From positions 3,840,001-3,904,000 of the forward strand of contig OZ242260.1 of assembly GCA_965207065.1 (NCBI GenBank): a stretch of DNA of 64,000 bases, given 5' to 3'. The notes under the pieces are model-generated. The model was given only the letters and a program-made list of their open reading frames with translations. It did no database searches and was not told where the DNA came from. How positions within the stretch are numbered: position 1 is the stretch's first letter; each line of letters starts with the position of its first letter. The position numbers and the translations under genes are program-made. The DNA is from a bacterium. GTDB lineage: Bacteria; UBA8248. Shown here one piece after another: positions 4,092-64,000 of the stretch.

Positions 4092-4095
4092 TACC

Positions 4096-8002: not shown

Positions 8003-8005
8003 CAC

Positions 8006-9092: not shown

Positions 9093-9115
9093 ATAAACCA
9101 GCGCTCGCAAGACTC

Positions 9116-9987: not shown

Positions 9988-10001
9988 GGGGCCGCACCTG
10001 T

Positions 10002-10745: not shown

Positions 10746-10851
10746 TCCAAGCATCAACATTTCGTAGATTAAACGATTATTCACAGACACGAATACAACC
10801 AAAATGAGAGCCTGAAATTTTCACCATGGATACCCGGAAGGAGACTTTTCA

Positions 10852-11058: not shown

Positions 11059-11423
11059 AATTTCGGTGTTTCGCTCTCTGAAGTATGCTAGAGCCTTGAA
11101 ACAAAAGATTTTACGTTTTCATCCTTGACCAGAAGGAAAAACATGCAGTAATATCACGCGTCGTGTACTTGAGATATCGGGATGAATCACTCACCCGGGC
11201 TTTTCTGAGACGTATTCAGCGTTTTAGCACACGAATTATTATGGAAAACGGCCAAATGGGTCCGAAAAAGATGTTGTGGAATAAGGAGTCTGGCGTAAGA
11301 AGGGGGCGGTGTGCCCTCGTGCGCCGTCCCCTGATTTCTTCTTAACGACCCGCCGGCATCATCGGCGTTTTTCGGATCAACTTCATTGTCAGCGTGAGAA
11401 CAAGCTCAACTGGCAGAGAGGAA

Positions 11424-13208: not shown

Positions 13209-13220
13209 GAGGTTTCATTC

Positions 13221-15936: not shown

Positions 15937-15939
15937 CCG

Positions 15940-16596: not shown

Positions 16597-17398
16597 ATTT
16601 GGTCGTCGTTCACGCAGAAGAAGACGCCGCTCAGGAAGGCGCTCTTTTCAGCGAGGGATATTCCTGGTTCCCAATCTGCTGACGACAGGCAGTCTTTTTG
16701 CCGGTTTCTATGCAATCGTCGCCTCTATACAGGGAAACTTCATCTGGGCCTCGCTGGCCATATTGTTGGCCATCGTCTTAGATGGGCTTGACGGCACTGT
16801 CGCCAGGTTGACGAAAAGCACGAGCGCTTTTGGGCTACAATACGACTCTTTGTGCGACCTGACGGCTTTCGGCATCGCACCTGCCGTTTTGATATATACC
16901 TGGCTCCTCGCCCCTTACGGGAGAATCGGCTGGCTGGCCACCTTCATATTCGCTGCTTGCGGCGCCTTGAGGCTGGCGCGCTTCAACGTGCTGGCGCAAG
17001 CGGGCAGCGGTTCCATGGATTTCCGTGGCCTGCCGATACCCGGGGCGGCGGGTGTCTTGGCATCCATCGTATACTTGGTTGAAGATTTTTCGATCAAGCC
17101 CCACGTCCCCCTCATCCTCATTGCGGCGCTCAGCTATGTTCTGGCATTCCTGATGGTGAGCACCATCCGCTACAAGAGTTTCAAGGATATAAGCGGACCG
17201 CTCAGGAGACCATTCCGCGTCCTCGTCGGCGCGGTGCTTGCTCTGTTCGTGGCGGCGGCGATTCCTCAGGTGGTCGCCTGTCTGGCTTTTGTCGGTTATG
17301 CTGCATCCGGCCCCTATGGAATGATAACGAGGTGGCAGAGAATAAAACGAGAGCGCGCCTCGGACAACCTCGAAGAAACACATCCGGAATCAACATAA
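16562..17398 (+). CDS. pssA: CDP-diacylglycerol--serine O-phosphatidyltransferase
   Basis: DGLDGTVAR...FGLQYDSLCD motif, LRLARFN, FRGLPIP; start uncertain. Confidence 0.93.
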   Translation: MDDQTTRQPRNKFGRRSRRRRRRSGRRSFQRGIFLVPNLLTTGSLFAGFYAIVASIQGNFIWASLAILLAIVLDGLDGTVARLTKSTSAFGLQYDSLCDLTAFGIAPAVLIYTWLLAPYGRIGWLATFIFAACGALRLARFNVLAQAGSGSMDFRGLPIPGAAGVLASIVYLVEDFSIKPHVPLILIAALSYVLAFLMVSTIRYKSFKDISGPLRRPFRVLVGAVLALFVAAAIPQVVACLAFVGYAASGPYGMITRWQRIKRERASDNLEETHPEST

Positions 17399-17580
17399 CC
17401 CTTCCCGAAGCGCATCTCATACCGCTATAAACGGCTCGTATGATGAGACGTATCTCATCTTGTTCCTTATGCCCCCTGGATTGCGATCTCATCAAATTGG
17501 ATTCATAATCTATCCGACTCAAAACCGTTATAGAAAAGCTTAGCTCATCTGAAGTCAGAGACAGTTCCTAGTGATTCACG

Positions 17581-19911
17581 ATGATGAGAGTCTCCGTGAC
17601 GAAGAATAAATATGTAGCTTTTTTGAAAACAGATGGGCTTTATTTATCAATCGCAATTTTCTCCTTTGTAATTTTCTGGACGCCATCATCCCCGAGAGCA
17701 CAGCAAAACAGCGTTGCGCAAGTCCAAGCGCCGCCCACTACGTCCACAAAAAGTGACGAGGACCCTCGATCCTCAAGAGAACGTGAAGAATCCATCGCCA
17801 TCACGGCTGATGAGATACGAGAAGACCGGGAGCGGCAGCGGATTATCGGCCGCGGAGCTGCGGACATCCGGTATTTGGGCAAAAGGATCCGGGCGGACCA
17901 TATCGAGGTGCAAACATCCACGCGAGATGGCGTCGCCACCGGTAACATTGTTTTTCAAACTGCGAACGACCGTATTTTAGCCAACCGCATTGAATTCAAT
18001 CTCGATACCGAACGGTTGGTCGTGTTCAACGCGCGCGGCACCATCGGCACCACATATTATGTAACGGGACGAGTGATTCGGCGCCTGTCAGAAAACCGGT
18101 ATGAAGTCCAGGGGGGCACTTTCACCACATGTGAAGGGGAGCTTCCAGACTGGGCTTTCGGTTTCGAGCGGGCGACCTTCGAGGTCGAGGGCTACGCTAA
18201 ACTTGAAGCCCCCACCATGACGGTTAAGGGGGTGCCGGCAACTTTTTTACCCTGGGTTATGGTGCCGATAAAAACGAAAAGAGCCACCGGCTTCCTCCTG
18301 CCGGGCATCGGCTCGAGCAGTCGAAGCGGTTTCCAGTTTTCCCCCTCATTTTTCTGGGCCATCAACGATTCTACGGACGCCACTCTCGGTGTCGATTATT
18401 TCACAAAGCGCGGTACCCGCTATAAAGGAGAGTACCGCTACGCACCGAATCAAAACACCTCGGGACAGATAGCGGGTCGCTACCTGAAAGATAAAATCGA
18501 GCGGTCGACCTTCTGGGACGTCAGAGGCTTCCATCGCACGAATTTCAAGGATAAGGGCGCAAATCTACACGCCGTGGTCGATTTCCAAAAACGACCGCAG
18601 AACGACCGCTCTCTCGAAGACGGTTTGCTGACTCGCACACGCCAGGCTACCGACACCCATGTCACCTTCATGCAAAATCTCCCCCAAATATCCGGACAAC
18701 TCCAACTGGGAATGAGACGACGCGAGGGATTGGGCGAAAACGACGGGCAATTGTTCCAACGAGCTCCGGATATTGTCCTGGGCATCCACAACAAACGTCT
18801 GGGTAAAAGCAATTTTTATTTCAACCTGGATTCCTCCTTCACAAATTTCAGAAAAACGGAGTACGAAAATACGCTCCGCTTGAGCCGGTTTCATGTCGAA
18901 CCATCTTTGTCGCTTCGTTTGGAGACTGTTCCCTGGCTCGGCCTGACGCCCGAAATCGGATTCCGCAGAACCCACTGGACGCACCAAAGAACAGTACCTG
19001 GATTGGGCTCGGACTTCGATGACACGCAACATATAGAATCCGGCCTTTCACGTGAAATGTGGTTTACGAGGCTTCATGCGATTGGCCCGCGATACAGTAA
19101 AGTCTACCCAGGTGAACTAGGCCCCTTCCAGGATTTCAAGCATATCCTCTCGTTTGAAGCGAAATATCTATACAGCCCGAACAACGACTCGTACGACAGA
19201 AGCCTGATCATCCCCTTGGACCCGGTGGACACTCTGCAGCATGAACATGCCGTCGAATACGCCATCGTGAACCGTGTACTGACGAAACTACCCACAAAAG
19301 ACGGGTTCCAGACAAGGCAGTTGTTTCGCTACCGAATCAGCCAGACTTATGATCTCGTCGAAGCGCGAAGGAATGAAGGACTGGACACGAAACCGAAACG
19401 TCCTTTGAGCGACATTACTTTCAGGCTCGAATCACAGCCCTTTTCCAAACTACGTCTGCTGCAACAATTCAAATACAACCCCTACGACCTGGAAATCAGC
19501 GAACACTCCACAGGTGTCTTTCTCGACGGCGGGAAGGAGTGGTATCTCAACGTAGATAGAACCTGGACGCGTCAAAGGGTCAATTATCAGGAAAACGAAG
19601 AAGGTAGTTACCTGAATTTCGCCGGGGGGTTCTCTCTCAACGAGAATCTTTCCTTCGAATATTTTTCGCGTATTAACAAAACGGAAAAGACAACATTGGA
19701 GCAAAGCATAACGGCACGCTACCTCGATTGTTGCTGGGGCATGGAACTCACGATCACCGACACCAAGGATAAAAGCGACGTCTTCCTCGGCTTTAGCCTC
19801 ATCGGTCTGCTCGAAAGCGAGAGGGGCCTGGGTTTCACGAGTAGACCAACTGTTTCACGAAGAGGCGGATTTGGGGCAATCAGCTCATGGGCGTCTTCAT
19901 TTTTTGAGTAA
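17581..19911 (+). CDS. lptD: LPS assembly protein LptD
   Basis: OstA-like N-terminus, FTTC, KRATGFLLP, FFWAI, beta-strand-rich C-terminus with DCCW. Confidence 0.85.
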   Translation: MMRVSVTKNKYVAFLKTDGLYLSIAIFSFVIFWTPSSPRAQQNSVAQVQAPPTTSTKSDEDPRSSREREESIAITADEIREDRERQRIIGRGAADIRYLGKRIRADHIEVQTSTRDGVATGNIVFQTANDRILANRIEFNLDTERLVVFNARGTIGTTYYVTGRVIRRLSENRYEVQGGTFTTCEGELPDWAFGFERATFEVEGYAKLEAPTMTVKGVPATFLPWVMVPIKTKRATGFLLPGIGSSSRSGFQFSPSFFWAINDSTDATLGVDYFTKRGTRYKGEYRYAPNQNTSGQIAGRYLKDKIERSTFWDVRGFHRTNFKDKGANLHAVVDFQKRPQNDRSLEDGLLTRTRQATDTHVTFMQNLPQISGQLQLGMRRREGLGENDGQLFQRAPDIVLGIHNKRLGKSNFYFNLDSSFTNFRKTEYENTLRLSRFHVEPSLSLRLETVPWLGLTPEIGFRRTHWTHQRTVPGLGSDFDDTQHIESGLSREMWFTRLHAIGPRYSKVYPGELGPFQDFKHILSFEAKYLYSPNNDSYDRSLIIPLDPVDTLQHEHAVEYAIVNRVLTKLPTKDGFQTRQLFRYRISQTYDLVEARRNEGLDTKPKRPLSDITFRLESQPFSKLRLLQQFKYNPYDLEISEHSTGVFLDGGKEWYLNVDRTWTRQRVNYQENEEGSYLNFAGGFSLNENLSFEYFSRINKTEKTTLEQSITARYLDCCWGMELTITDTKDKSDVFLGFSLIGLLESERGLGFTSRPTVSRRGGFGAISSWASSFFE

Positions 19912-37163: not shown

Positions 37164-37186
37164 TGGTGCCGGAGGCCGGTTTCGAA
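37164..37186 (-). repeat. Distal att site: displaced tRNA-Leu 3' end including CCA
   Basis: tggtgccggaggccggtttcgaa; 13-bp exact core tgccggaggccgg (37167-37179) equals 47660-47672. Confidence 0.88.
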
Positions 37187-37239
37187 TATGCCAGCTAAGG
37201 CATTGTATTTATTAATCTTGCAATTTCAAAACTTTCACT

Positions 37240-37253
37240 TAACCCACGATTTA
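37240..37253. promoter_or_regulatory. Putative integrase arm-type binding site
   Basis: taacccacgattta is identical to 47512-47525 at the other end of the element. Confidence 0.7.
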
Positions 37254-37294
37254 CACCACAAGATTATCATATTTCTCGCTTCTGTTGTGAAATC

Positions 37295-37765
37295 TTATAC
37301 CAAATTCCAAATACCCAAAATAGCACCAACAATGAAAGATAAAAGTCCTAAACCACCTGATACATTTTCCCAACATATCCAATTATTATGGCGTTCATTT
37401 AAATTTCCACACTCTTCATCAAATTTAACTCTACTGATTCTGTCCGCAGAATAATCTTGGGTAAGTTTATTGTGTTTTCTACTTAAGTCCATAAATCGCA
37501 AATACACACTACCATTGATCATAACAGCAAGAACAAGACCTAGGCAAAAACAGGCCATTGGTGGCCAAAGCCAAGCGTCATTATGAGGCTTCGCGGCAGT
37601 TAATACTGCCACTAGGGCACCGCCGTTCATAAAAACAAGATGGCGAATATACATGTATCCTGAAGATATTTCAGCATCAACAATCTTGGATGAGATACTT
37701 TCCGCAACCTCTACAAACTTTCTTTGGTATTCTTCTGGACTTTCAGAAAACCTGTGCTCATCCAT
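37295..37765 (-). CDS. AT-rich cargo membrane protein, function unknown
   Basis: 156 aa, three hydrophobic segments, GGGGAG RBS, visibly lower GC than neighbours. Confidence 0.75.
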   Translation of the reverse strand: MDEHRFSESPEEYQRKFVEVAESISSKIVDAEISSGYMYIRHLVFMNGGALVAVLTAAKPHNDAWLWPPMACFCLGLVLAVMINGSVYLRFMDLSRKHNKLTQDYSADRISRVKFDEECGNLNERHNNWICWENVSGGLGLLSFIVGAILGIWNLV

Positions 37766-37895
37766 AGTCCAAACGCTCCCCTATTTTCAGTCGCCTACCC
37801 TCTCCTTTTAGGCCCTTTTTTTCCGGGGGGGAGTATACACCTTTCGGGAAAGGTTTTCTCGCGTCTTACGCCGTCTCTGCGAGCGTGGCGGCGGC

Positions 37896-38444
37896 CTAGC
37901 TTTCGGCGTCGACTTGGAATGAATCCCCGGCAAGGTCGACGGGAACGCGCTCCATTCGACCCACGGCCTGAACGTCTGGCTGTAGATATGCAATATCGAG
38001 GTCGATTGCGACCCGCTCCTCATATTCATCGTCCGGGATGATCGCGGAAACGTCTCGAACGACTAGCGGATTTCGCACCCGGAAGCGAGCGCCGCCGAAC
38101 GTCCCTTGAATCTCCGCGTCGTTCCTGTCGGCTTCGAGTCGGCCAAGGGGAGACTGCGACCACTTCACGAAGCGCTCCGCCGCCGACTGCGCTCCCGACC
38201 GGTAGAACTGGACGCTGTAGGTCGCAAAGTGAGTCGCCTGCACCGATACCCCTACCTGCCCGTCATCCGCGTCGAAGTAATGCTCTGACGCCTGTCCTGC
38301 TGTTGAATCGGTTATCAGAGTTACGGACGCGAACAACCCAGAGGGGAGCGGCGCGGATTCGTTTCCCGGAATGACGAGGGTCGTGTCGATGCCCGACCCC
38401 TTGGCGACGTAAGTGCGGAGCCTGCGTTCAAGGTTGATGTTCAT
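37896..38444 (-). CDS. Phage neck/tail-terminator-like protein (tentative)
   Basis: 182 aa, ATGA-coupled last gene of the head operon; pattern VIPGNE.AP.P...ASVT...YSVQFY...E.R..IDL.I.Y recalls neck terminators. Confidence 0.5.
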   Translation of the reverse strand: MNINLERRLRTYVAKGSGIDTTLVIPGNESAPLPSGLFASVTLITDSTAGQASEHYFDADDGQVGVSVQATHFATYSVQFYRSGAQSAAERFVKWSQSPLGRLEADRNDAEIQGTFGGARFRVRNPLVVRDVSAIIPDDEYEERVAIDLDIAYLQPDVQAVGRMERVPVDLAGDSFQVDAES

Positions 38445-38947
38445 GCTCGACTTTCCTCAAGCATTTTCTTGCGCAAGTAACAGACCCGCGTCCGCGTTGC
38501 ATTGAACGTCCTACGACCGGAGAAGTGCTTTTGCCACACGTCCGGCCAGGTGCCCGGCGGAACTTTCGGAAACTCGATATGCGCAGCAAGGATTTCATCT
38601 TCCCATTCCTGCCAGTGTCCATCCTCCTCGGCGCTGCCCAGAAAATCGACATCCAACGTCCTAAGCCGTTCCAGTAGAGAAGCTTTGGAGCGACCCAAGG
38701 TAAACGCGAGCGCATCTAGTTCAGATAAGGCTTCATAGTGCTTATGGATAGGCACTGCCTTGCAAGCGAGGAGCGCCGCGTCTTCCTCGGCAGTCCAATC
38801 TTTTCTCGTGGTCTTTGGGTTTTCGATTCCAACCTTTGAGAAACCGTTCCGGCGATATCGGCTGTAGTGCTTATGGCAGAGGCCCCGAGCCGTTTTCACG
38901 CCCCCGCAGCCCTCGATCTCGCAAACCCGGTTGATGATGACCATCAC
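38441..38947 (-). CDS. Cys/His zinc-finger plus Myb/SANT-like repeat protein
   Basis: CEIEGC...GLCHKHY; WTAEEDAALL and WQEWEDEILA repeats; GTGA overlap. Confidence 0.6.
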   Translation of the reverse strand: MMVIINRVCEIEGCGGVKTARGLCHKHYSRYRRNGFSKVGIENPKTTRKDWTAEEDAALLACKAVPIHKHYEALSELDALAFTLGRSKASLLERLRTLDVDFLGSAEEDGHWQEWEDEILAAHIEFPKVPPGTWPDVWQKHFSGRRTFNATRTRVCYLRKKMLEESRA

Positions 38948-40020
38948 GCCGCCTCATCGCCAATGCCTACAGCGGCCATTGCGACGCCGATATCAACACC
39001 CGCCTTGACGAGTTTGTCCACCACTTGGGCGCGGCTCACCATGTCCATGGCGTAGGTATCAAATTTCAGCCGGACTTCGGTTTCCAGCTTCAAGCTGAGT
39101 TCGTTTTCGAGCGCCTTTGCCAAAGGCATGACGACGTTCATATGCCAGCGGCGAACTGCTTCTCTTTGTCCGGTTCCGTCGGCATCGACAAAGAGGCTGG
39201 GAGGGCAACCGCATGCCGCCAGCGTGGCATCGAATGCGCCCTTCCGGATCGCTTCCATCACTTCGGGAGGCGAAGGCCCCAACCGATTAAAAGCCCAGCT
39301 TTTCGCGTCTCGCCCTTCGCCCATTGCGCTGGCGAGATTTTCTAACAAGATGGATTTTCCTCTGGCCCTGCCGATATCAGCCCGGAGAAGCACAAGTGGA
39401 TCGACGGCTTCACCCTCTTTGCCCGACGCGGCGCTCTGCGGCGGAATGACTGACACTTGAGCAAGGGGGCCGGAGACCTCATCCGCTAGGCTCCGTTCGG
39501 TTTCAGATTGCAGTCTCGCAGTCATGGCCGCCCATGACAGAGGCCCCACGCCAACATATCGCTGGCCGGGTGTGCTGCCCCATTTCACGAACACCACGCC
39601 GCTAAAAGGCAGGTGCTTGGTAACGGAAGATGACGGCCCGAACATAGTCGCCCGAACTCGCCACCGATCCGGATGAGGATCACCGTCGTCTTCAAAGTGC
39701 CAACTCGAAACCGGGAGGAGCGAAGCGCTGCCTGCGTGGTCTATGCCGATGTAGTGCATGGATGAACCGCGCCGGATGAGGTCTCTCCCGACCTGCGCGA
39801 GAAACTCCGGGGAGACGGCGTCTCTCGCCCAGCCCAGCCCCTGCACTTCGGCGGATGCGAACGCCCGAGAGAGCGCACCGCTGGCCGCCTCCACCGCCGC
39901 TGTAGACGAAGCGTCCGCCGCCGTGCCAGCCGCCTGCGCTTCGATGAGGCGAACCACGGCGGCGCTGAAATCTCCGCCTGATTCGCGCCTTTCCAGTTTT
40001 CCAAAAGGCCACCACTTCAT
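38944..40020 (-). CDS. Phage portal protein (HK97-like, compact)
   Basis: MKWWPF..ERR N-terminus, DLIRRGS, YVGVGPL, AACGCPPSLF, VMPLAKALENELSLKL; TAATG coupling at 40020. Confidence 0.75.
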   Translation of the reverse strand: MKWWPFGKLERRESGGDFSAAVVRLIEAQAAGTAADASSTAAVEAASGALSRAFASAEVQGLGWARDAVSPEFLAQVGRDLIRRGSSMHYIGIDHAGSASLLPVSSWHFEDDGDPHPDRWRVRATMFGPSSSVTKHLPFSGVVFVKWGSTPGQRYVGVGPLSWAAMTARLQSETERSLADEVSGPLAQVSVIPPQSAASGKEGEAVDPLVLLRADIGRARGKSILLENLASAMGEGRDAKSWAFNRLGPSPPEVMEAIRKGAFDATLAACGCPPSLFVDADGTGQREAVRRWHMNVVMPLAKALENELSLKLETEVRLKFDTYAMDMVSRAQVVDKLVKAGVDIGVAMAAVGIGDEAA

Positions 40021-40346
40021 TAGGTGCTCCTCACAATGACGGCCTTGGTGTGAGAGCCGTTCCATGACTCGCTAGACTCTACCGAATACTCCACGTCATC
40101 GACGCGAACGCGATCCCCTCCAGCGTCGTCATGGGCCGCTTCAAGCACGTCCGCTTCCGGAATGTAGACTTTCCTTCGATGAATGAGCCGGGAGCCTTCG
40201 AGGAGATCAATATCCATGAGCTTGAGCGGCTGGACGCTGGCGAAATACTTCTTTTCCTCTACCGCTCCGGGTTGCCATTCGCCGAATTGATTTCTCTCAC
40301 CCGGCGCTTCGCGCAGCCGTGTGATGATGTCGGGGAAGCGTCTCAT
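40020..40346 (-). CDS. Head-closure (stopper) protein
   Basis: ITRLR...NQFGEW...ASVQP...GDRVRVDDVEYSV pattern; ATGA overlap with the adaptor gene. Confidence 0.7.
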   Translation of the reverse strand: MRRFPDIITRLREAPGERNQFGEWQPGAVEEKKYFASVQPLKLMDIDLLEGSRLIHRRKVYIPEADVLEAAHDDAGGDRVRVDDVEYSVESSESWNGSHTKAVIVRST

Positions 40347-40690
40347 CCGATAGTTCCCGCGCGGTAGACGCGCCAAGGTGCGAGAAGGCTCATCGCGCCG
40401 CTGGCCTTGAGCGCGTTCGTGTTCGTGGTGGCGTAGGCGGTTTCAATGTCGCCGGTCTTCTCACTTCGGATGCTGGGCGAAGGTTGATCTTTGAGCCATC
40501 CCGCGCATCGTATTATTGCTTCGTTGCGAATTTCGAGCGGGGCGTCCGGGGCGTATTTCACAACAAGGCCATAGGCCACCGGGAGGAGGCGCTCGACGAG
40601 AGCCGCGTCGGTTATCTTCAAGGCCTCCGCCAGTTTCTCCGCCGTGATCCCGATGACGGCTTGGGGCGGATCGCCGAAACTCACAGCCAT
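40343..40690 (-). CDS. Head-tail adaptor (HK97 gp6/SPP1 gp15-like)
   Basis: Helical, P..IRNEAII, IRSEKTGD hairpin, C-terminal SLLAPWR. Confidence 0.7.
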   Translation of the reverse strand: MAVSFGDPPQAVIGITAEKLAEALKITDAALVERLLPVAYGLVVKYAPDAPLEIRNEAIIRCAGWLKDQPSPSIRSEKTGDIETAYATTNTNALKASGAMSLLAPWRVYRAGTIG

Positions 40691-41346
40691 CGGCGCGCCC
40701 TCCGGGGAGTGATGAGCGGGGCATCCGCTCTCAGATCGATCTCTGTGCTTCCGTATGCCGGACGGCTAACGATGCTTATCTCGTGCAGGACGGCCTGCTT
40801 CACGACTCGAATTTTGACGCCGGGGTTGCCAACTTCGTCGATGAGTTCCTCGGCATTTTGGACCACGTTGCGGGGAGGGATGCGGAAACCCGGACTCACG
40901 CCTCCTGCCCGGCCCGTGCGGATTTCCTTCACAACGTCCGCCATATAGGAGGGCATATCTTTCTCATCCGGGAGATCAACCTCGAAGCTGAGCGCGTCGT
41001 CTCCGTCCGCCACGCGAGCGGTTTTTCTGAGCATATCGCCTAGGGGCTTGTCGAATGAATGCCCGCTCAAGACGTGAACGTTCGCTCGCTCTAGCTGTTC
41101 TTCGATGATCTCTCTCTGCGCCTTCTCGATTCCCTCCTCGATGACGCGAGCAAGCTCTTTTTGCAGTTCCTGAAATCTTCTTACCTGCCAGCCGAAGGCG
41201 CGGGAGTTGATGCGCTCTTTTCGCACCCGTCCTCTGTCTCGAACTGTCGCCGTTTTTCCATACGGAAATTTTCCGCTGAGAATCCGGGAGGAGCCGCGCG
41301 CCCTGATTTCGAGTTCGCCGTCCAAAATCAAATAAGTTTCCGTCAT
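40681..41346 (-). CDS. HK97-family prohead protease
   Basis: LEIR...LSGKFPY, ERI...AF, LSGH, GGVSPGFR, LHEISIVSRPAY; GAGGA RBS before ATG 41346. Confidence 0.85.
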   Translation of the reverse strand: MTETYLILDGELEIRARGSSRILSGKFPYGKTATVRDRGRVRKERINSRAFGWQVRRFQELQKELARVIEEGIEKAQREIIEEQLERANVHVLSGHSFDKPLGDMLRKTARVADGDDALSFEVDLPDEKDMPSYMADVVKEIRTGRAGGVSPGFRIPPRNVVQNAEELIDEVGNPGVKIRVVKQAVLHEISIVSRPAYGSTEIDLRADAPLITPRRARRWL

Positions 41347-41358
41347 GCTATTCCTCAT

Positions 41359-41437
41359 GGCGCTGGCGGTTGGAGGTAGGAAGGGTGAAGCCGCCCCTCC
41401 ACGGCGCGAGGCCGCCAGCGCCGCACCCTCGCGCCGT
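41359..41437 (-). other. Predicted H-type RNA pseudoknot between capsid stop and protease RBS
   Basis: Two interleaved perfect 11-bp inverted repeats: 41427-41437 with 41401-41411, and 41412-41422 with 41359-41369. Confidence 0.7.
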
Positions 41438-42724
41438 CTAGGTGCTCACCTGTAGCTGTACCTGAGCGTATGCGTCGGGCTGTGTGACGATGATGTCACC
41501 GAGCAGAACGTGCAAGGTGTAGTATCTTTCGGCCTTGGCGCTGCCCGTGTAGATGTCGTCTATGCTCACCTCGTTCCAGTGAGGACAGACGGCCGTCCGC
41601 ATCCCGCCTTCGCCGCCCATCATGGAGCGGCCCATCCGGTAGAGGATAGCTTGCGCGATGTTCGAGGCGGTGTCGGGCATTCTCTTGTTTGTCCAGAATC
41701 CGCCGAAGTGATCCATCGCGTAATCTGAAAACGCCTTGTCTCCCAAGTCTTGTCCGGTCGCATCGCGAAAGGCTTTCATCGCGAGGCGGTAGGTATCGGG
41801 GTTTACGACGATCCCGACCTCTTTGGCGGTCGATGCCCAGAGGCCGTCAATACCACCGGCGAACAGATCAACGAAGTCATCGAAGTCTGCGACGCCGGAC
41901 GGCGTCCCTTGAGGGTCTGTGAGGGCGGCGAACATTCCCTTGAGGTTCGGGGCCGTTCCGTTTCCGTTGATCGCCTGATCGTCCAGCGCATCGGAGAGGG
42001 CGAGGCTCAAGTTCTCTCTGAGGATGCTCTCGAAGTTCTCCTGCCCAACTGCGGCGATATCTTCAAGGGCCAGTTCCAGACGGGCGCTTACGCGCTTCGG
42101 TGTCGCCGTGGTTACGGTGAGAGCGCCAGCGGTCGCGGCGATGGCCGCGCTCTTGTCCTTCGCTTCGGCGGACTGCGAGCCGGTTATGGTCGCGGAGGCG
42201 AAGGTTCCCGACCCGACGCGCGGCATCTGGATTCCCAGCTTAGGCGCAATGCTGTGTGCGAACACGGCGGGCAAAATCGGATCTAAATTTATGCCGACGG
42301 TTCCCGGCGCTTCGGTGATGGCTCTCTTTTCAAGGTCGGGCCGGGGCACGTCGAAAATCTCAAGGGGAATTCCTGAGACGCCAGCCGCTTGGCGAAGTTC
42401 GAGTTCGGCTCCCGCCACCATGCGACCCTGCGCGGCGGCGGTGAAATACTCCGTGAGCTTTGCCCGGCTCCGCAGTTCGATGCGTTCATGCTGCTCTGCG
42501 TCGAAGCCGTTGGCATGGACGATGCTTTTCTTGTCGTCTTCTTCGAGCAGGAGGCGGACGGCGCTTCGGCGTTCGAGGAGCTTCTTTTTCTTCGCCGCCA
42601 GTTCGCGCAGTTCGGTGTCCGCTTCGTCGTTCAACGTCTCCTCACTGAGGAGTTCGGCGGAGCGCGTTTCCACCTGTTCGAGTTCGTCGGCAATTTGCCT
42701 GATTGCTTTCTGGTTTGGTGTCAT
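41438..42724 (-). CDS. HK97-fold major capsid protein with N-terminal coiled-coil scaffold (delta) domain
   Basis: Charged helical N-terminus; TATPKRVSA, LDDQAINGNGT, VVNP, C-terminal QPDAYA. Confidence 0.85.
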   Translation of the reverse strand: MTPNQKAIRQIADELEQVETRSAELLSEETLNDEADTELRELAAKKKKLLERRSAVRLLLEEDDKKSIVHANGFDAEQHERIELRSRAKLTEYFTAAAQGRMVAGAELELRQAAGVSGIPLEIFDVPRPDLEKRAITEAPGTVGINLDPILPAVFAHSIAPKLGIQMPRVGSGTFASATITGSQSAEAKDKSAAIAATAGALTVTTATPKRVSARLELALEDIAAVGQENFESILRENLSLALSDALDDQAINGNGTAPNLKGMFAALTDPQGTPSGVADFDDFVDLFAGGIDGLWASTAKEVGIVVNPDTYRLAMKAFRDATGQDLGDKAFSDYAMDHFGGFWTNKRMPDTASNIAQAILYRMGRSMMGGEGGMRTAVCPHWNEVSIDDIYTGSAKAERYYTLHVLLGDIIVTQPDAYAQVQLQVST

Positions 42725-42756
42725 GGTCTTCCCTCATTTTCGCGAAATGAATATAC

Positions 42757-42795
42757 CTTGACGCAAAGATAGGTGTTTTCGACGAATCCGTCAAG
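42757..42795 (-). promoter_or_regulatory. Promoter of the capsid operon with overlapping inverted repeat
   Basis: Minus strand TTGACG-N17-TATCTT; cttgacg (42757-42763) and cgtcaag (42789-42795) form an inverted repeat. Confidence 0.6.
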
Positions 42796-42907
42796 TAATT
42801 GATATTAAATGAGTTACAGTGATATTAGGTTGGTATCACGGAAGGGAGATGAAAAACTGGAAAAACCCTGATAATCAATTCCTAAATTTCAACAACGTGG
42901 AGGAATC

Positions 42908-43147
42908 ATGCCTCGAAAAAAAGACCCACCGCCGCGCTGCGAGTTCTTAGAATTATGGGAAAATCCTATAACCGGAGAAACAGCACAAATACGTTGTGGC
43001 CGTGCAGCAGGTAACAAAGATACACCGCATATGTGTTCCCCAGGCGGAGAGCATCCGCCAGCACCTAGTGAGGTGGACGAGAACGGCTGGCCAAAATTGT
43101 TTGGCGGTTGGACGATAGAAGAAAGGAGACGCCCTATACGTCCATAA
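42908..43147 (+). CDS. Small hypothetical protein on the strand opposite the element's genes
   Basis: GGAGG RBS, 79 aa, AT-rich upstream region. Confidence 0.5.
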   Translation: MPRKKDPPPRCEFLELWENPITGETAQIRCGRAAGNKDTPHMCSPGGEHPPAPSEVDENGWPKLFGGWTIEERRRPIRP

Positions 43148-43424
43148 TTTCATTCAAGAACATCACCCACTGCTTCTCATCGTGAGTGAGCTTCCTGCGA
43201 TGCTCGTCAACGTGGCATGTTCGGCACAAGGTGCGGATTCCGTCCAAATTATAGGGGTCTCCGCCATCCCAGAGCGGCGGATCGTGATGCGCTTCGAGAC
43301 GTCCTGCGGCTCCGCATTTCGTGCACCGGAAGCCGTCTCTTTCGAAGCACTCACGCCTCGCCCGCGCCCACCTTGCTTGATTCATCGCGGAGTAGTTTTT
43401 CGACCCCGGATGCTTTCGGCTCAC
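43134..43424 (-). CDS. HNH endonuclease (packaging-associated type)
   Basis: RWARAR...RDGFRCTKCG...EAHH...TLCRTCH; GTGA overlap with terL. Confidence 0.88.
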   Translation of the reverse strand: MSRKHPGSKNYSAMNQARWARARRECFERDGFRCTKCGAAGRLEAHHDPPLWDGGDPYNLDGIRTLCRTCHVDEHRRKLTHDEKQWVMFLNEIMDV

Positions 43425-44851
43425 TCACAAAGTCCTCCATATCGCCAATTAGGTTTGGATGGTCTACTCAACTCCCGATAGAACGCTCCAGCCGATAGCG
43501 TTAACGCAGCTGCTACGTCGTCTCTTGCTTCGTTGTTTGCCCCTCGCTTGGAAAGGCGGGTATTACCTTGATCGTCATTCTTCACCAATGCCGCCGATAG
43601 GCTGGCCGTCAAAAGTAATCGGGAGCCATCCTCACATGATAGCGGGCCATCCTTCGCCAACTTTCGGAGCGCTCGAATATCCTCTGCCGCCTCACTCCAG
43701 CGAGCTACCCTAGGCTGTAACGGGATGCCGTTCGTGCAGTCCTGTAGTTCTGCCAGCCGAAAGCGGTCGGAGACGATGACTCCCGGCTCTCCCCACTCGC
43801 TCAAGATGGCACCCACCAACTGCGCCGGGGGTTGAACACGCAATCCTTCCGCTACGCGCAAAGCCCCGGACTGAGCGAGTCTCTGATATGTTCCTTTTGG
43901 AACCCTATCCCGCTTTTCCTGATCGGCCAGCGAGGGGATACCCGGAGCTACGGCCAGCGCCTCGACGCGCCCGGAGCGCCATATTCCCACCGCCGCAGAC
44001 CATGCCCTTCCACCGCCCAGGTCAACTCCCACGAAAGGCAAACCCTCTCGCTTCGCCACCGGACGGGAACATACTCGCTCAAAATCATCGACGGAGAGGA
44101 GCATTGTAGATTCATCCCCGCTAGGACAATTTAGACGATAGCTCAAGAATCGCGCCTTGAGACGAGTATCCCGCCGCGCTTCGTCTCTCTCTGCTAAGAG
44201 TTTCTTTCGGAATTCTGGCGATACCGCCGTAAGTGGATTGCATCGGCGAATCTCCGGCCATTGCTCCCATTTATCTGGGTCTCCTATGAGGGCTTGAACA
44301 TAGGTAGACCCGCCCGTTCCATCATTCACGAGGTCATGCCACCAGCCACCCAGGGACGGCGCGAGAGTTCCAATGAATAGAGCCTTTAGCGGACTTCCCG
44401 GCTTACCCTGAGCGGTCGTGATGCTGTCATATAGTTGCTGCCCGCCTATGACTTCGGCGCTCCCCGGCTCATCGAATATCGCCCACGGACACCCCACTAG
44501 CCCGAAGGACGTTTTCGAGTTGCTCCCGGCTACCCGTAGCCTCGTATTCGTAGGCTCGTGCGTTATCGCGCACCGCGTCGCACTATCAAGAAACCGATAC
44601 CCGCCGAGCGGCTCAAGGGTAGCTCGCGCGAACCTGAAAACGATTCTGCATTGCTCGATTGAACCTGAGAAAAGAACCGACTCCGTTCCCGGACGGAAAA
44701 GAAAATCATCCGGCGAAAGCACACGCGAGACAATATACCCGGCTAGCCATGACTTGCCGTTGCCTCTGGGGATTGATAGCGCCGCCGTATCCACCCCCGG
44801 AGCCGTAGCTTCCTTGATGAAACACTTTTGAAATGGCCGAAGTTCAATCAA
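43421..44851 (-). CDS. terL: Terminase large subunit
   Basis: LRPFQ Q-motif, Walker A IPRGNGKS, Walker B AIFDE, NP, nuclease GVDLG and DDVAAA. Confidence 0.9.
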   Translation of the reverse strand: MIELRPFQKCFIKEATAPGVDTAALSIPRGNGKSWLAGYIVSRVLSPDDFLFRPGTESVLFSGSIEQCRIVFRFARATLEPLGGYRFLDSATRCAITHEPTNTRLRVAGSNSKTSFGLVGCPWAIFDEPGSAEVIGGQQLYDSITTAQGKPGSPLKALFIGTLAPSLGGWWHDLVNDGTGGSTYVQALIGDPDKWEQWPEIRRCNPLTAVSPEFRKKLLAERDEARRDTRLKARFLSYRLNCPSGDESTMLLSVDDFERVCSRPVAKREGLPFVGVDLGGGRAWSAAVGIWRSGRVEALAVAPGIPSLADQEKRDRVPKGTYQRLAQSGALRVAEGLRVQPPAQLVGAILSEWGEPGVIVSDRFRLAELQDCTNGIPLQPRVARWSEAAEDIRALRKLAKDGPLSCEDGSRLLLTASLSAALVKNDDQGNTRLSKRGANNEARDDVAAALTLSAGAFYRELSRPSKPNWRYGGLCE

Positions 44852-44920
44852 GGCGATTCCCCATTACACAAACGAGCCCAACGTCGCCCCTACCTTGTGA
44901 TCGCCGCGCCGCCGGTGCCA

Positions 44921-45070
44921 TCACGCCTTCTTGTATTCCCCGCACCACCACTCCGCCATCACAAAAGGCCAAGTTCTTTTGTCTCCCGGTCTAGGCGGGA
45001 AGCGATGACACTCTCCGTTAATGTTTGATTTTGATTCGTAGTAGGCGCATGACTCGCATTTTCCCTTCAC
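44921..45070 (-). CDS. 49-aa four-Cys protein (absent from the ORF track)
   Basis: Manual translation MKGKCESCAYYESKSNINGECHRFPPRPGDKRTWPFVMAEWWCGEYKKA; GTGA overlap and GAGGA RBS. Confidence 0.7.
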   Translation of the reverse strand: MKGKCESCAYYESKSNINGECHRFPPRPGDKRTWPFVMAEWWCGEYKKA

Positions 45071-45306
45071 GGTATTTCCTCCTCGTGCTCATGGGCGGGT
45101 TGTAGGTGATTCAGCGTGTCCGCTAGCGCGGCGGCGAAGGTCTGGGCGTCCTCGCGACCAAGGCGGCGGGCATATGCCCGGAGAATACCGACGCGGACGT
45201 GATAACTTTTGAGTTCGTGGAGGTGGAGAAGTCGTCCGCACACGTCGCACGTTAGCCACTTGTCTCCAGCTTTCGGGGTGCGCCAGTGGTGAGGTCTACA
45301 CGCCAT
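45067..45306 (-). CDS. Small hypothetical protein, possible Zn ribbon
   Basis: CRPHHW...CDVCG; GGAGG RBS before ATG 45306. Confidence 0.55.
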   Translation of the reverse strand: MACRPHHWRTPKAGDKWLTCDVCGRLLHLHELKSYHVRVGILRAYARRLGREDAQTFAAALADTLNHLQPAHEHEEEIP

Positions 45307-45452
45307 GAGTTCATCCTCCCGCCGCCGATTCAAAAGTAGAACTTCAAAGCCTTTGACTTTCGACTTTGATCTCCGGTTCTGACTTTGAGACTTTCCCTCC
45401 TACCGACCGCTTCTTATATTTCTGAATTTGTCTCTGGTTGTTTCTCTCGCGG

Positions 45453-45509
45453 TGCCTCATTTTTGAGGCGTTAAATTGCGTTTAATGCCTCACTTTCGAG
45501 GCGTTAAAT
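45453..45509. repeat. Two 24-bp palindromic iterons (putative replication origin)
   Basis: tgcctcatttttgaggcgttaaat and tgcctcactttcgaggcgttaaat, 22/24 identical, 33-bp period. Confidence 0.7.
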
Positions 45510-45930
45510 CCTCGCCATCATTAGGGAATAGCAGGTCGATGTCGCCATGCTTGAGGATATCTCCCGTTCTCGCGTTCACTTTCCAAAGCGCCCCCATTTT
45601 CTTCGGGCTAGGCTGTCGAACAATAAATCCCTTGGCCTTGAGGCCAGCTTGCGCACGCTCGATTGCCGCCTTGCTCTTGCCCGTCATATCCCGAATCGCT
45701 TCGTTCGTGATCACCCTGCAATCGTTTCGCCACCCACCTAGCAAGAGCATGGCGGCGAAGACTTTGAACTCGGAATCCGTGAGCCTGAAATAGGCCTCTC
45801 GCATAGGCGCGAATTTACCATCGATGCGTTTACTCTTTTTCCCATTCTTCAAAACCGGCGAGGTTTCCGGAACAATGATTCCATCCGTCTCCGATTGACT
45901 CCGTGATACTCGGCTGGTATCTTTCACCAT
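45490..45930 (-). CDS. Winged-HTH protein, putative replication initiator
   Basis: LTDSEFKVF...ITNEAIRDMTGKSKAAIERAQAGLKAKGFI; iterons at the 3' end. Confidence 0.65.
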   Translation of the reverse strand: MVKDTSRVSRSQSETDGIIVPETSPVLKNGKKSKRIDGKFAPMREAYFRLTDSEFKVFAAMLLLGGWRNDCRVITNEAIRDMTGKSKAAIERAQAGLKAKGFIVRQPSPKKMGALWKVNARTGDILKHGDIDLLFPNDGEDLTPRK

Positions 45931-45944
45931 GATATTTGTTTCTC

Positions 45945-45982
45945 GAAAAGCCCCGATGACTTTGGCCGGTCTGGGGCTTTTC
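45945..45982 (-). terminator. Hairpin between alpA and the initiator gene
   Basis: gaaaagcccc...ggggcttttc 10-bp inverted repeat. Confidence 0.55.
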
Positions 45983-46007
45983 TATTTCTGGGCGGAGAAA
46001 GAAGTCC

Positions 46008-46199
46008 CTAGGCGACTGGGGCCGTAGAGCGCGGACGTGATTCGATCCATGCGCGGATTTCATCTTCGCGCCAGCGAACCGCGCGCGGCCCGATCTTGAG
46101 CGCCTTGGGAAATTCGCCCTCGTCCATGAGACGATAGATTGTTGACTTGACGTATCCGGTGATTTCGCAGACTTGCTTACAGGTGAGCAGCTTTGGCAT
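46008..46199 (-). CDS. alpA: AlpA-family regulator/excisionase
   Basis: LLTCKQV...TG..KSTIYRLM..GEFPK...GPRAVRW...EI.AWI. Confidence 0.92.
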   Translation of the reverse strand: MPKLLTCKQVCEITGYVKSTIYRLMDEGEFPKALKIGPRAVRWREDEIRAWIESRPRSTAPVA

Positions 46200-46308
46200 T
46201 TCGAGTCCACCCCATAAAAAAGAAAGTGAACCTCCGGCCTTCCCAGCGCCAGAGGTCTCCTTTCAGGTCTACAGGGGATAACTAAAATACCTTAATGGAC
46301 TTTATCAG

Positions 46309-47496
46309 TCAATTCCCTCGAATCGAGATCACCTTCCCGCGCTCGCCACCCGCCACATAGCGGCCCCACTGCTCCATCAGGCGCACTCGCTTGGCGAATA
46401 GATCGGAGCGCGCATAAGCCCTTTCCGTGGCGTCCCCGACGTGGTGCGCCAAGCATAGCTCCATGACGGCGTGTTCGGCGTTCGTTTCCTCCGCCGCCCA
46501 CACTCTGAACGATGATCTGAAACCATGCACGACTGCTTTCTCAGCGAGGCCCGTGTCTCTCAGGATTTTTGTTAGGCCCATGTTTGAAATCGGCTTGCCT
46601 TTCCGCACGGGCGACGGAAAAACCAGTCCGCTCTCATCGCCTAGCAGCTTTGCTTTTTCCAGCACGGCCAGAGCCTGATCGCTCAAGGGCTGTCTGTGCT
46701 CGCGTCCGCTCTTTGCGCGGCTGGCGGGGATACGCCACGTCCGCGCCTCGGTGTCAATTTCAGACCATTCCGCCAGCCTCGCTTCCCCAGAGCGGCAAGC
46801 GGTAAGAATCACAAATTCGAGACACGCCTTGGTGCTCATCGACGCTTTACTGCCCCTCACGATTTCAAGCGCTTCGGGAACTTCTGCATACGGGAGCGCC
46901 CGGAAATTCTCCCGGACGGCGGGCATACTCGGGAGCGCGCCGGATACCGCCTCTCCCGCCACGTTCACTTCCACCAGTCCATGCGACAGCGCCCATGATA
47001 GAGTCGCCTTGATCCCCCGTCGCAGTTTCCGGCCCATTTCCGGCTTAGAAGTCCACAGAGGAGTCAAGATGTTCAGCACGTCCTCGCGGCCTACCTTGTC
47101 CACGGGTAGATCGCCGATACGCTGGAAGGCGTGGCGCTCTAAAATCTGCCACCAGTTCTTTCTCACCTTATCGTTGCGCCAGCGCGGGGAGAGGGCCTCA
47201 TGCGTCCGCTTCGCCGCTTCCCGGAATGTAGGAGTCTTTGCTTTGCGTTTCTCCGTCAAGGGGTTATTCCCGTCTGCCACGGCGACCCGATTCTCGAATG
47301 CCTTACGCCTCGCTTTTTCGAGAGAAACGACCGGCCATCCCCCTAGCCCGATATCGCGTCTGCGTCCTTCAATCGTGACTCTTTGAATCCAATTTTTCCC
47401 ACCGGAAGGCGTTACGTTCAAAAAGAGAGTTCCGCCGTCGCTGTAGCGACCCGGTTTTTTGATGCCTCTCACCTTCGCAACTGATAGATTTCCCAT
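46309..47496 (-). CDS. int: P4-type tyrosine integrase with arm-binding domain
   Basis: YSDGGTLFL, GLGGWPVVSL; catalytic R (ACRSGE), K, HGFR, LAH, AY all present. Confidence 0.95.
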   Translation of the reverse strand: MGNLSVAKVRGIKKPGRYSDGGTLFLNVTPSGGKNWIQRVTIEGRRRDIGLGGWPVVSLEKARRKAFENRVAVADGNNPLTEKRKAKTPTFREAAKRTHEALSPRWRNDKVRKNWWQILERHAFQRIGDLPVDKVGREDVLNILTPLWTSKPEMGRKLRRGIKATLSWALSHGLVEVNVAGEAVSGALPSMPAVRENFRALPYAEVPEALEIVRGSKASMSTKACLEFVILTACRSGEARLAEWSEIDTEARTWRIPASRAKSGREHRQPLSDQALAVLEKAKLLGDESGLVFPSPVRKGKPISNMGLTKILRDTGLAEKAVVHGFRSSFRVWAAEETNAEHAVMELCLAHHVGDATERAYARSDLFAKRVRLMEQWGRYVAGGERGKVISIRGN

Positions 47497-47511
47497 GCCC
47501 GTTTTCTCCCA

Positions 47512-47566
47512 TAACCCACGATTTAACCCACGTTCGATCGCGGACTTTAACGGACTCGAACGGACT
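47512..47566. promoter_or_regulatory. Arm-type repeats and 10-bp phased CGGACT repeats
   Basis: taacccacg at 47512 and 47524; cggact at 47541, 47551 and 47561. Confidence 0.65.
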
Positions 47567-47659
47567 TGTCAAGACCCAAAACCGCTTGTAACTAACTGAT
47601 ATATTTATATTTATTGTTTAGGAAAAGACCTTGCCGGTCTTCATCGGACTATAAGGAAA

Positions 47660-47743
47660 TGCCGGAGGCCGGACTCGAACCGGCAAGGGGTTGCCCCCGG
47701 TGGATTTTGAGTCCACTGCGTCTACCAATTCCGCCACTCCGGC
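47660..47743 (-). tRNA. tRNA-Leu(CAA), CCA not encoded
   Basis: GCCGGAGTGGCGGAATTGGTAGACGCAGTGGACTCAAAATCCAC...GGTTCGAGTCCGGCCTCCGGCA; long variable arm. Confidence 0.97.
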
Positions 47744-47818
47744 AGAAAGAAAATGTAACTTAGCCTCTCCTCATGCCTTCTGGCAAGATGTGTCTCGATT
47801 TTTCGCAGCGTGCGAGAC

Positions 47819-63199: not shown

Positions 63200-64000
63200 T
63201 CAGGGCTTGCCTGCGAGGCTATCCGGCAAGCGATAACTCGTACTCCGCCCACCACCGGGATTCCGAATGAAAATCCCGCGGGCCCTTAAATCCTGAATAT
63301 CCCGAAGCGCCGTATCCGTAGAGCACTTCGCCAGTCTGGCGTATTTCGAAGTATGCATATGTCCTTCGAAATCATCCTCGAGCATACGATTCACGACCAG
63401 GCGCTGGCGTTCGTTGACGGGCTGCCGGTTCATTTCCCCCCAAAGCTGCGCCTTGAACAGAACTTTGCGCAGCGTATCTTCCGCATTGCCGAATGCGCGG
63501 CCCAGGCAATCGAGGAACCATTCCAACCAGTCTGTTATATCCGGTGCGCCGCGTTGTTGTTTTTCCAATTGAGCGTAATATTCCTTGCGCTCGGATTCCA
63601 TTTGTGTCGATAAACTGTAAAAACGATCCGCCATGCCGTCAGAACGGGCCAAAGCCATATCGGCGATGGCTCTCGCAATGCGGCCGTTGCCGTCTTCGAT
63701 TGGATGGATCGTGACGAACCAAAGATGGGCAACCCCGGCTCTCAAGATGGGATCCAGGTTGTTTTTGTCCTCGAACCATCCCAGAAACGACCCCATTTCG
63801 CCTTCGAGCCGACTCGCATCCGGCGCTTCGAAATGAACCTTTTCACGTCCAACGGGGCCTGAAATAATTTGCATGGGACCGGCTTCGGCAGTGCGCCAAT
63901 CGCCTGTTGTAATACGACGCATCCCGCTCCGGCCTGCCGGAAACAACGCAGCATGCCAATCGAATAAACGCTCTCTGGTCAGGGGTTTGGAATATTGCCG
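63200..64000 (-). CDS. Fic-domain protein, 5' end outside the window
   Basis: HPIEDGNGRIAR Fic motif; frame open to the window edge (PLTRERLFDWHAALFP); C-terminal HTH. Confidence 0.9.
   Translation of the reverse strand, partial: RQYSKPLTRERLFDWHAALFPAGRSGMRRITTGDWRTAEAGPMQIISGPVGREKVHFEAPDASRLEGEMGSFLGWFEDKNNLDPILRAGVAHLWFVTIHPIEDGNGRIARAIADMALARSDGMADRFYSLSTQMESERKEYYAQLEKQQRGAPDITDWLEWFLDCLGRAFGNAEDTLRKVLFKAQLWGEMNRQPVNERQRLVVNRMLEDDFEGHMHTSKYARLAKCSTDTALRDIQDLRARGIFIRNPGGGRSTSYRLPDSLAGKP

Follow-up and report, generated by a model that had tools for sequence, protein, structure and literature searches.

In a 64,000-nt stretch of bacterial DNA (contig OZ242260.1 of assembly GCA_965207065.1, GTDB lineage UBA8248; hereafter the window, whose positions are used for all coordinates), we found an integrated element of about 10.5 kb, which we interpret as an intact, integrative, capsid-forming phage satellite of a large and previously undescribed lineage. 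We put the probability of this reading at about 75 %. The element sits in the 3' end of a tRNA-Leu gene, carries recombination genes together with a head and packaging gene set, and has no recognised tail or lysis genes. It is from this gene content that we call it capsid-forming, regard it as intact and suppose that it takes its tails from a helper phage. Capsid-forming satellites described so far come mostly from Proteobacteria and Firmicutes.

An initial annotation of the window, made from the letters alone, had proposed that a repeat of the tRNA-Leu 3' end bounds the unit, and our analysis bore this out. The two attachment (att) cores differ at two positions and are spaced 10,493 bp apart (Table 1). 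Searching the whole window with the 20-mer and allowing up to three mismatches returned only these two matches, and two matches were obtained in none of 100 shuffled sequences. The target, tRNA-Leu(CAA), is the sole tRNA that ARAGORN found in the window and is intact according to both ARAGORN and Rfam; the Rfam scan returned no other non-coding RNA. On the left, the element is bounded where a DegT-family aminotransferase gene ends and the GC content drops to 44.7 %. Just internal to each att core stands an exact copy of the 13-nt motif AACCCACGATTTA, which has no further exact copy in the window. The pair is plausible as the arm-type site of an integrase with an arm-binding domain, and statistically weak when taken alone, with three matches at up to two mismatches, a result equalled in 7 of 100 shuffles.

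The open reading frames (ORFs) of the element were identified by Pfam, PHROGs and NCBIfam scans, which confirmed the minus-strand gene order read earlier and to which a plus-strand gene, orf79, was added. The integrase (with Arm-DNA-bind_3, Phage_int_M and catalytic domains), AlpA, the HNH endonuclease, the capsid, the protease and the neck terminator protein all scored above the curated Pfam cut-offs. Every gene with an assigned family is within the length range of its homologues, in line with the earlier statement that no gene is visibly broken. The HNH gene overlaps the terL gene by 4 nt at the terL stop. In these scans the element ORFs gave no tail tube, sheath, tape measure, baseplate, fibre, holin or endolysin family, and no primase, helicase, repressor or small terminase subunit (TerS) family, so that the absences listed in the initial annotation stood as well. 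The tail module, lysis cassette and immunity repressor of a complete prophage were found neither in the element nor elsewhere in the window, and a family scan of the flanking genes revealed no prophage anywhere in the 64 kb.

The head genes are of HK97 type and very distant from known phages. Among 50,697 phage records, the best matches of the large terminase (TerL) were HK97-like lambdoid phages at 26–27 % identity, and the capsid and portal had no tblastn match at all. Neither the capsid sequence alone nor its profile A1 matched any solved structure. An AlphaFold2 (AF2) model of the capsid, based on an alignment of 78 diverse sequences, was confident (pLDDT 86.4, pTM 0.70); an alignment of 25 sequences had given a pLDDT of 41.4. 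The model contains a long, delta-like helical N-terminal domain (about residues 3–98) ahead of the HK97 fold, and this modelled domain corresponds to the built-in scaffolding domain that HK97-type proteases remove. Foldseek searches with the model returned HK97 gp5 (3.6e-13), the capsid of the Rhodobacter capsulatus gene transfer agent (RcGTA; 8.6e-13) and 9GYI, the capsid of a capsid-forming phage-inducible chromosomal island (cf-PICI; 1.3e-10). The best solved structural matches were HK97 gp5, phage phiXacJX1, the RcGTA capsid and siphophage R4C, and the neighbours among BFVD structures were all at most 16 % identical. For the portal, profile A2 found its best solved match in the HK97-family portal of RcGTA (6TBA/6TE8, 3.8e-6) and also matched PDB entry 9I8C. 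The true start of the portal gene may be an internal ATG at 40020.

The same unit recurs widely. With one genome scanned per species, capsid relatives were found at 60 loci (given L numbers below) in seven phyla, namely Pseudomonadota (41), Gemmatimonadota (11), Binatota (2), Chloroflexota (2), Spirochaetota (1), Actinomycetota (1) and Thermodesulfobacteriota (1), with one locus unlabelled. The 1,722 matches from 8,000 scored candidates included more than 120 capsid clusters at identities of at least 61 %, and clustering at 50 % identity gave 1,989 clusters with E ≤ 1e-3, of which 353 reached E ≤ 1e-30. Capsid homologues were also present on contigs of about 10.3–11.5 kb. By tblastn with the window proteins and by hidden Markov models (HMMs) made from the delimited elements, the core order terL-HNH-capsid-protease-adaptor-(closure)-portal recurs in most of the 60 loci; the HMMs matched the capsid in 59, the protease in 58, the portal in 56, the adaptor (in a conserved position), HNH and terL in 54 each and the integrase in 46. 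L005, L007, L019 and L034 are integrated in Mb-scale contigs or chromosomes, which argues against mis-binning.

For the ends of the relatives, we asked in 34 tRNA/locus rows whether the tRNA 3' end is repeated beyond the far side of the element. An exact repeat of 11–53 nt was present in 25 rows and absent from nine, some of them on truncated contigs. Three of the 25 rows were dropped: two of L005, one with an 11-nt match taken as chance and one with a 14-nt match that gave 13,963 bp in a copy whose portal is frameshifted, and one of L013, at 16,556 bp, where inserted DNA splits both capsid and terL. The 22 elements that were kept measure 9,482–12,468 bp with a median of 10,493.5 bp, and 20 of them fall within 9.4–11.2 kb; the two longer ones are L010, with a 756-aa transposase insert, and L045, with a larger replication module. 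Their target tRNAs vary (Arg, Leu, Lys, Thr, Ser, SeC, Asn, Val and Glu). The recurrence of gene order and of a size of about 10–11 kb at tRNA sites, which the initial annotation had named among its checks, was therefore observed.

A single copy of such an element could also be the deletion remnant of an HK97-like temperate prophage which has lost its tail, lysis and immunity genes and become immobile. Its structural genes are indeed all of HK97 phage type, some relatives are visibly decaying and no excision product was seen. However, no tail module lies within or beside the relatives. Pfam on all 137 non-core ORFs (at least 95 aa) of the 22 delimited elements, and PHROGs on the 81 of these that had no clear Pfam assignment, gave no tail or lysis family except for one early-region ORF of L036 (3107-3592), a Dit-like homologue (PF21821 8e-17; phrog_817) and the only clear tail-family match in any delimited element. 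In the flanks of 21 undelimited loci, where 121 of 195 ORFs were scanned (at least 160 aa, locus positions 2,300–19,000), there were two isolated matches of the 'tail' category and no tail module. Moreover, the 22 independently integrated relatives keep both att copies about 10.5 kb apart at different tRNAs, the genes of the window element are full length, and its flanks hold housekeeping genes. Random deletion would not yield one conserved size in seven phyla. Since one size and layout recur at many independent tRNA sites across these phyla, a deletion remnant cannot explain the family, and we give this largely refuted alternative hardly any credence. The capsid relatives sit in tail-less units of about 10.5 kb and not in full prophages, as the earlier judgement that this is not a decayed prophage implied.

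The closest known systems are the cf-PICIs, exemplified by EcCIEDL933/EcCI2 and KpCIDSM30104 (10.1101/2022.09.08.507074; 10.1101/2025.02.11.637232). These reports describe a Proteobacterial lineage, with the order capsid-protease-portal-connectors followed by hnh-terS-terL (10.1101/2022.09.08.507074; 10.1101/2025.02.11.637232), and two Firmicutes groups, each with its own layout. They also give a size range of about 10–18 kb for cf-PICIs (10.1101/2025.02.11.637232), and the 10,493 bp of the element lie within it. Our element shares with the cf-PICIs an integrase and AlpA placed together at one end, HNH plus TerL, and HK97-type head genes of its own (capsid, protease, portal, adaptor and connector) that are far removed from those of known phages. 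Both are also small, of fixed genome size and free of tail and lysis genes. A TerS next to HNH and TerL is also expected of a cf-PICI, and no TerS family was found; for the replication module (primase or replicase) of a cf-PICI, the window offers a 146-aa winged helix-turn-helix (wHTH) protein with weak O-like matches. Counted by function, the element has 9 of the 11 components in the cfPICI model of SatelliteFinder, whose Type C needs at least 9 of 11 core components and forbids tail and holin genes (PMC10085698).

Most of the published cf-PICI features being present, and the Type C threshold being reached by function, the element might be a divergent member of one of the three described cf-PICI lineages and nothing new. 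We regard this as quite improbable. The 78-sequence capsid profile gave no match to the EcCI2 capsid 9GYI at E ≤ 1, yet it matched phage capsids, that of HK97 among them; aligned by structure, the capsid is 15 % identical to 9GYI, which ranks 32nd in Foldseek, and it is no closer to 9GYI than to HK97. The element measures about 10.5 kb, a third smaller than the 15.4–15.5 kb of cf-PICIs, and its core order terL-HNH-capsid-protease-adaptor-closure-portal is unlike all three layouts as these are described. It lacks a recognisable TerS and, in this copy, a primase. Its family also has hosts in Gemmatimonadota, Binatota, Chloroflexota, Actinomycetota, Spirochaetota, Thermodesulfobacteriota and probably Nitrospinota; 18 of the 59 labelled loci are in hosts outside Proteobacteria and Firmicutes, and in the full-text literature that we searched no such elements were described from these phyla. 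The proposal of the initial annotation that no described cf-PICI subtype matches was thus upheld, with the layouts compared by their published descriptions.

We also compared the element with HK97-like siphophages (HK97, HK75 and mEp390), with which it shares a delta-domain capsid of HK97 fold, an S78 protease and a portal of the HK97 family; both also pair TerL with HNH, and a gp6-like adaptor with a head closure protein. Unlike these phages, it has no tail, lysis, immunity or TerS genes and only a quarter of their genome size, its portal has moved behind the connector genes, its TerL is at most 27 % identical, and its capsid and portal lack tblastn matches. P4-like satellites, classical PICI/SaPI, PLE, PICMI and VEIMEs resemble it in their integrase/AlpA/replication front end, tRNA-type integration and small size; those elements remodel or borrow helper capsids, whereas this one encodes a full head. 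The vast majority of the marine VEIMEs are reported to encode no capsid-like genes.

RcGTA (PDB 6TBA, 6TB9) has a small HK97-type head too, and it supplies the best solved match of the portal and one of the top folds of the capsid. This likeness raises an alternative in which the element forms particles on its own, either as a GTA-like or tail-less particle or as a minimal virus whose tail or receptor function is hidden in unannotated small proteins. No helper has been identified, one genome holds seven loci, and there are family-less ORFs that could be called upon (orf79, the 88-aa and 49-aa proteins, the Zn/Myb protein and the cargo). RcGTA, a vertically inherited system with tail genes and with neither integrase nor att sites, fills its particles with random host DNA. 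In contrast, the present family is integrative, tail-less and multi-copy (up to seven loci per isolate), with an integrase, att sites and many insertion sites at varied tRNAs. Its neck proteins (adaptor, head closure and terminator/Neck1-like) have a known role in joining tails, the unannotated ORFs of 49–168 aa are not conserved in the family and are too small and variable for a tail, and no lysis gene is present. We therefore hold a self-contained particle to be unlikely, and return to the satellite reading.

Within the family, the early region and the cargo vary from element to element. The slot between alpA and terL holds VapE-like genes in L006, L018, L019 and L047, Replicase/PriCT genes in L027, L035 and L056, AAA_25 genes in L028 (plus a primase Zn ribbon) and L033, D5_N in L045, and, as in the window, a small wHTH gene (HTH_36/RP-C) in L009, L010 and L041. 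Given these VapE, primase and replicase modules, the lack of a primase is a trait of this copy and not of the family. The same applies to the extra neck gene: the gene for a 'tail completion/Neck1' protein immediately precedes terL in L007, L047 and L054 and follows HNH in L009, Neck1-like HMM matches occur in 5 of 60 loci, and the PF23961 protein of the window has no homologue in any of the 60. Hence, of the traits by which the initial annotation had set up a distinct family, the distinct tail-less layout stood, while 'no primase' and 'extra neck gene' had to be given up as family traits. The gene order is permuted in places: capsid to portal precede terL-HNH in L006 and L009, L024 and L035 have terL-HNH inverted, and one multi-copy clade carries its integrase behind the portal.

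TerL identities to the window are bimodal (about 30 % or 56–71 %), as are those of the portal (about 31–39 % or 45–64 %), and all four combinations occur, in 6, 3, 16 and 12 of 37 loci, which shows that modules have been exchanged between sublineages. In the capsid tree, a quick search with SH-aLRT support only, covering the 48 of 61 capsids with one full-length match, phylum labels change 7 times, against 13.4 times in shuffles, and are thus clustered, yet interleaved. The window capsid lies nearest to one copy from Spirochaetia and one from Gammaproteobacteria, a placement that is not strongly supported.

If the satellite reading holds, the life cycle might run as follows. A helper phage or stress would trigger excision mediated by AlpA and Int, and the wHTH protein would start replication at the adjacent repeat cluster with host enzymes. 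TerL and HNH would then cut unit-length DNA by an HK97-like cos mechanism and package it into small self-made heads, which the adaptor, head closure and terminator-family proteins would close and dock to helper tails. These tails would come from a co-resident or neighbouring phage of siphovirus type, which would also supply lysis, and the variable end would carry cargo, here a small membrane protein. The docking step follows the published cf-PICI mechanism (10.1101/2022.09.08.507074; 10.1101/2025.02.11.637232). The narrow size range implies a fixed head capacity. The EcCIEDL933 head is reported to have T=4 and to hold 15.5 kb; scaling by T^1.5 gives about 10.1 kb for T=3, so a T=3 head is predicted for the element by arithmetic from a cf-PICI head, not from data.

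Cf-PICIs have been proposed to cross species boundaries, as tail-less heads can join the tails of other phages. More tentatively, and as a reading that is less likely than not, we suggest that the family may be a fourth independently evolved lineage of capsid-forming satellites and the smallest (about 10.5 kb, predicted T=3 HK97-type head), packaging without a canonical TerS and spread over at least eight phyla, diderm and monoderm. It might have spread through shuffled terminase, portal and neck modules which fit its heads to the tails of unrelated helpers, some copies capping and capturing tails with a tail terminator or Neck1 protein of their own. An independent origin relative to the cf-PICIs is not proven, and the lineage is set apart from the Firmicutes groups by the description of their layouts.

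Several points weigh against our interpretation. The element is known from its genes alone, and the helper phage, the particles, the excised circle and attB are all deduced. No terminal overlap was found in L030, L044, L046, L047 and L051, among which L030, L046 and L047 are whole-contig relatives of about 10–12 kb, and there was no sign of circular forms. Some copies are decaying, with insertion sequence (IS) insertions or frameshifts (L013, L031, L039 and L055), and L050 and L058–L060 are remnants. The adaptor assignment is weak, its profile having no Pfam or PDB match, and that of the replication protein depends on a weak wHTH match of O-like type. Promoters and terminators were called by matches to a consensus, of which 10 were found against 5.1 expected, and the host labels of the 60 loci are the submitters' record titles. 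Finally, neither the window nor the 22 delimited relatives yielded a recognisable TerS (Pfam on 137 non-core ORFs, PHROGs on 81), although a divergent TerS is possible. Self-packaging is consequently unproven, and a helper TerS may be needed.

In a search for the missing TerS, comparison of the two ORFs that precede terL in each of 23 elements gave no common family other than the Neck1-like and 49-aa clusters. The leading candidate for a TerS substitute, weakly suggested by its sequence features, is the TerS-sized Zn/Myb protein, with a TerS from the helper as the alternative; homologues occur in 17 of 60 loci and lie directly upstream of the terL region in L006 and L054. The HNH protein also matched phrog_4581, 'terminase small subunit', and was rejected as a TerS, the match covering the HNH part only.

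If the interpretation is correct, capsid-forming satellites extend to uncultured environmental bacteria and spread at the level of phyla, with one head design and genome size across Pseudomonadota, Gemmatimonadota, Binatota, Chloroflexota, Actinomycetota, Spirochaetota, Thermodesulfobacteriota and probably Nitrospinota. The family would offer a compact, testable system for what sets an HK97-fold capsid to 10.5 kb, how packaging starts without a recognisable TerS and which neck proteins decide what tails are compatible. When metagenome-assembled genomes are annotated, elements of this kind are readily mistaken for defective prophages.

Table 1 Features of the element and its integration site, in order of window position; functions of sites and of proteins without a family are putative.
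Feature	Position	Strand	Evidence or remark
Distal att repeat, 18/20 copy of tRNA-Leu 3' end	37167..37186		13 nt exact, then TCGAA
13-nt motif AACCCACGATTTA, candidate integrase arm-type site, left end	37241..37253	+	function inferred
Cargo, 156-aa protein with hydrophobic segments	37295..37765	-	no family; 44.7 % GC stretch
Neck/tail terminator-family protein, 182 aa	37896..38444	-	PF23961 2.5e-13, 50.5 bits (cut-off 27)
Zn-ribbon and Myb-like DNA-binding protein, 168 aa	38441..38947	-	phrog_5351 1.5e-9; Myb 0.0087, below cut-off
Portal, HK97 family, 373 aa	38944..40065	-	PF04860 6.4e-8, below cut-off; phrog_12
Head closure/head completion protein, 118 aa	40020..40376	-	phrog_939 2.4e-7
Head-tail adaptor, 115 aa	40343..40690	-	phrog_442 7e-4, weak
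Prohead serine protease, S78	40681..41358	-	PF04586 4.5e-15; phrog_80
Major capsid protein, HK97 fold	41438..42724	-	PF05065 1.7e-8
AT-rich divergent promoter-like region, capsid gene/orf79	42766..42826	both	consensus matches only
orf79, 79-aa Cys-containing ORF, possible regulator	42908..43147	+	GGAGGA ribosome-binding site
HNH endonuclease, 96 aa	43134..43424	-	PF01844 1e-5; phrog_589 2.2e-13
Large terminase (TerL), 476 aa	43421..44851	-	phrog_9 2.9e-31
49-aa protein, four Cys	44921..45070	-	no family; homologue in L007, phmmer 2e-8
88-aa Cys/His-containing protein	45067..45333	-	no family; no homologue in 60 loci
Repeat-rich stretch, candidate origin or operator	45355..45509		two 24-nt repeats and GACTTT(G/C) x4; function inferred
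Winged-HTH protein, 146 aa, candidate replication initiator	45490..45930	-	weak O-like matches
AlpA-family excisionase/regulator	46008..46199	-	PF05930 9.6e-18
Tyrosine integrase with arm-binding domain	46309..47496	-	PF13356, PF22022, PF00589 each ~1e-18; phrog_1 1.2e-46
13-nt motif AACCCACGATTTA, second copy, candidate arm-type site	47513..47525	+	
tRNA-Leu(CAA), integration target	47659..47744	-	ARAGORN; Rfam 58.8 bits; 3' 20 nt (47660-47679) = proximal att core

In the early region, the O-like matches of the wHTH protein are to phrog_277/678 (8e-4) and, below the cut-off, to the phage O N-terminal domain TIGR01610 (2.9e-5). At the end of its gene lie two hairpin-containing 24-nt repeats, 33 bp apart, whose fold (z = -4.15) was equalled in none of 200 shuffles, and four copies of GACTTT(G/C) adjoin them; the cluster is a candidate origin or operator on the basis of these motifs. 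All other genes of the element are on the strand opposite to orf79, which diverges from the capsid gene and overlaps the stop of the HNH gene. The family scans gave no match for orf79, and none of the 60 loci holds a homologue. Small antisense ORFs are likewise seen immediately ahead of the capsid gene in L006, L009 and L010. The promoter-like hexamers between orf79 and the capsid gene are TTGACG-17-TATCTT on the minus strand (42794-42766) and TTGATA-16-GATATT on the plus strand (42799-42826). A 33-nt imperfect repeat (73 % identity) at 41364-41396 and 43102-43134, immediately downstream of the capsid and HNH stops, could represent an RNA element common to the 3' ends of both genes, or a weak terminator.

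Towards the other end, the head closure protein is linked by tblastn to ORFs of the relatives whose cluster matches PF05521 Phage_HCP. The terminator-family protein also scores 44.2 bits against NF047498 (cut-off 28) and has one other relative, at 34 % identity, in a large protein set. The cargo protein has no Pfam, PHROG, PADLOC or NCBIfam family; its atlas scores (0.94 for unnamed clusters, 0.79 for PycTM) serve as a lead only. PADLOC found no defence match for the cargo or the small ORFs, apart from a resemblance of AlpA to the MAD1 HTH protein.

Among the relatives, transposases inside elements comprise an IS1595-type one (L004:4765-5646), a DruA-like/DDE fusion (L010:6196-8463) and two identical ones in L031; in L013, terL and capsid are both split. 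The seven loci of one isolate belong to a Rhodospirillaceae bacterium: L014, L017, L020, L022, L052 and L060 on CBDHFR010000004.1 and L049 on OZ253551.1. Five of them form one capsid clade, in these five and in L049 the integrase follows the portal, L060 is a remnant, and transposases are frequent in their flanks. An ORF of about 147 aa resembling a P-loop NTPase (weak AAA_16/AAA_33) stands between capsid and protease in 6 of 60 loci (L007:11288-11731, L019:11566-12006, L039, L040, L042 and L053). A recurring accessory gene matching phrog_1281/phrog_10390 (E 1e-19 to 1e-32) lies between terL and HNH or after the portal (L021:8747-9298, L042:13974-14513, L053:8575-9249 and L057:8629-9204). L016 encodes a trypsin-like peptidase at its cargo end (13855-14607, minus strand) and a topoisomerase-like protein (phrog_6247, 2.5e-38) in its early region (5733-6833).

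The rest of the window contains housekeeping genes, including those for purine and aromatic amino-acid synthesis, LptD, BamD, sigma-70 and S1. The host probably belongs to Nitrospinota, judging by one gene, that of chorismate synthase, whose best named matches are from Nitrospinota/Nitrospinaceae at 72–77 % identity; this fits the poorly studied host supposed earlier. At 40-6268, where GC is high (62–68 %), lies a respiratory gene cluster with no relation to the satellite element; its products are an 879-aa molybdopterin oxidoreductase, a dihaem-type cytochrome c and three 4Fe-4S proteins. At the opposite edge of the window, a Fic/DOC-family protein is encoded on the minus strand (63200-63946).

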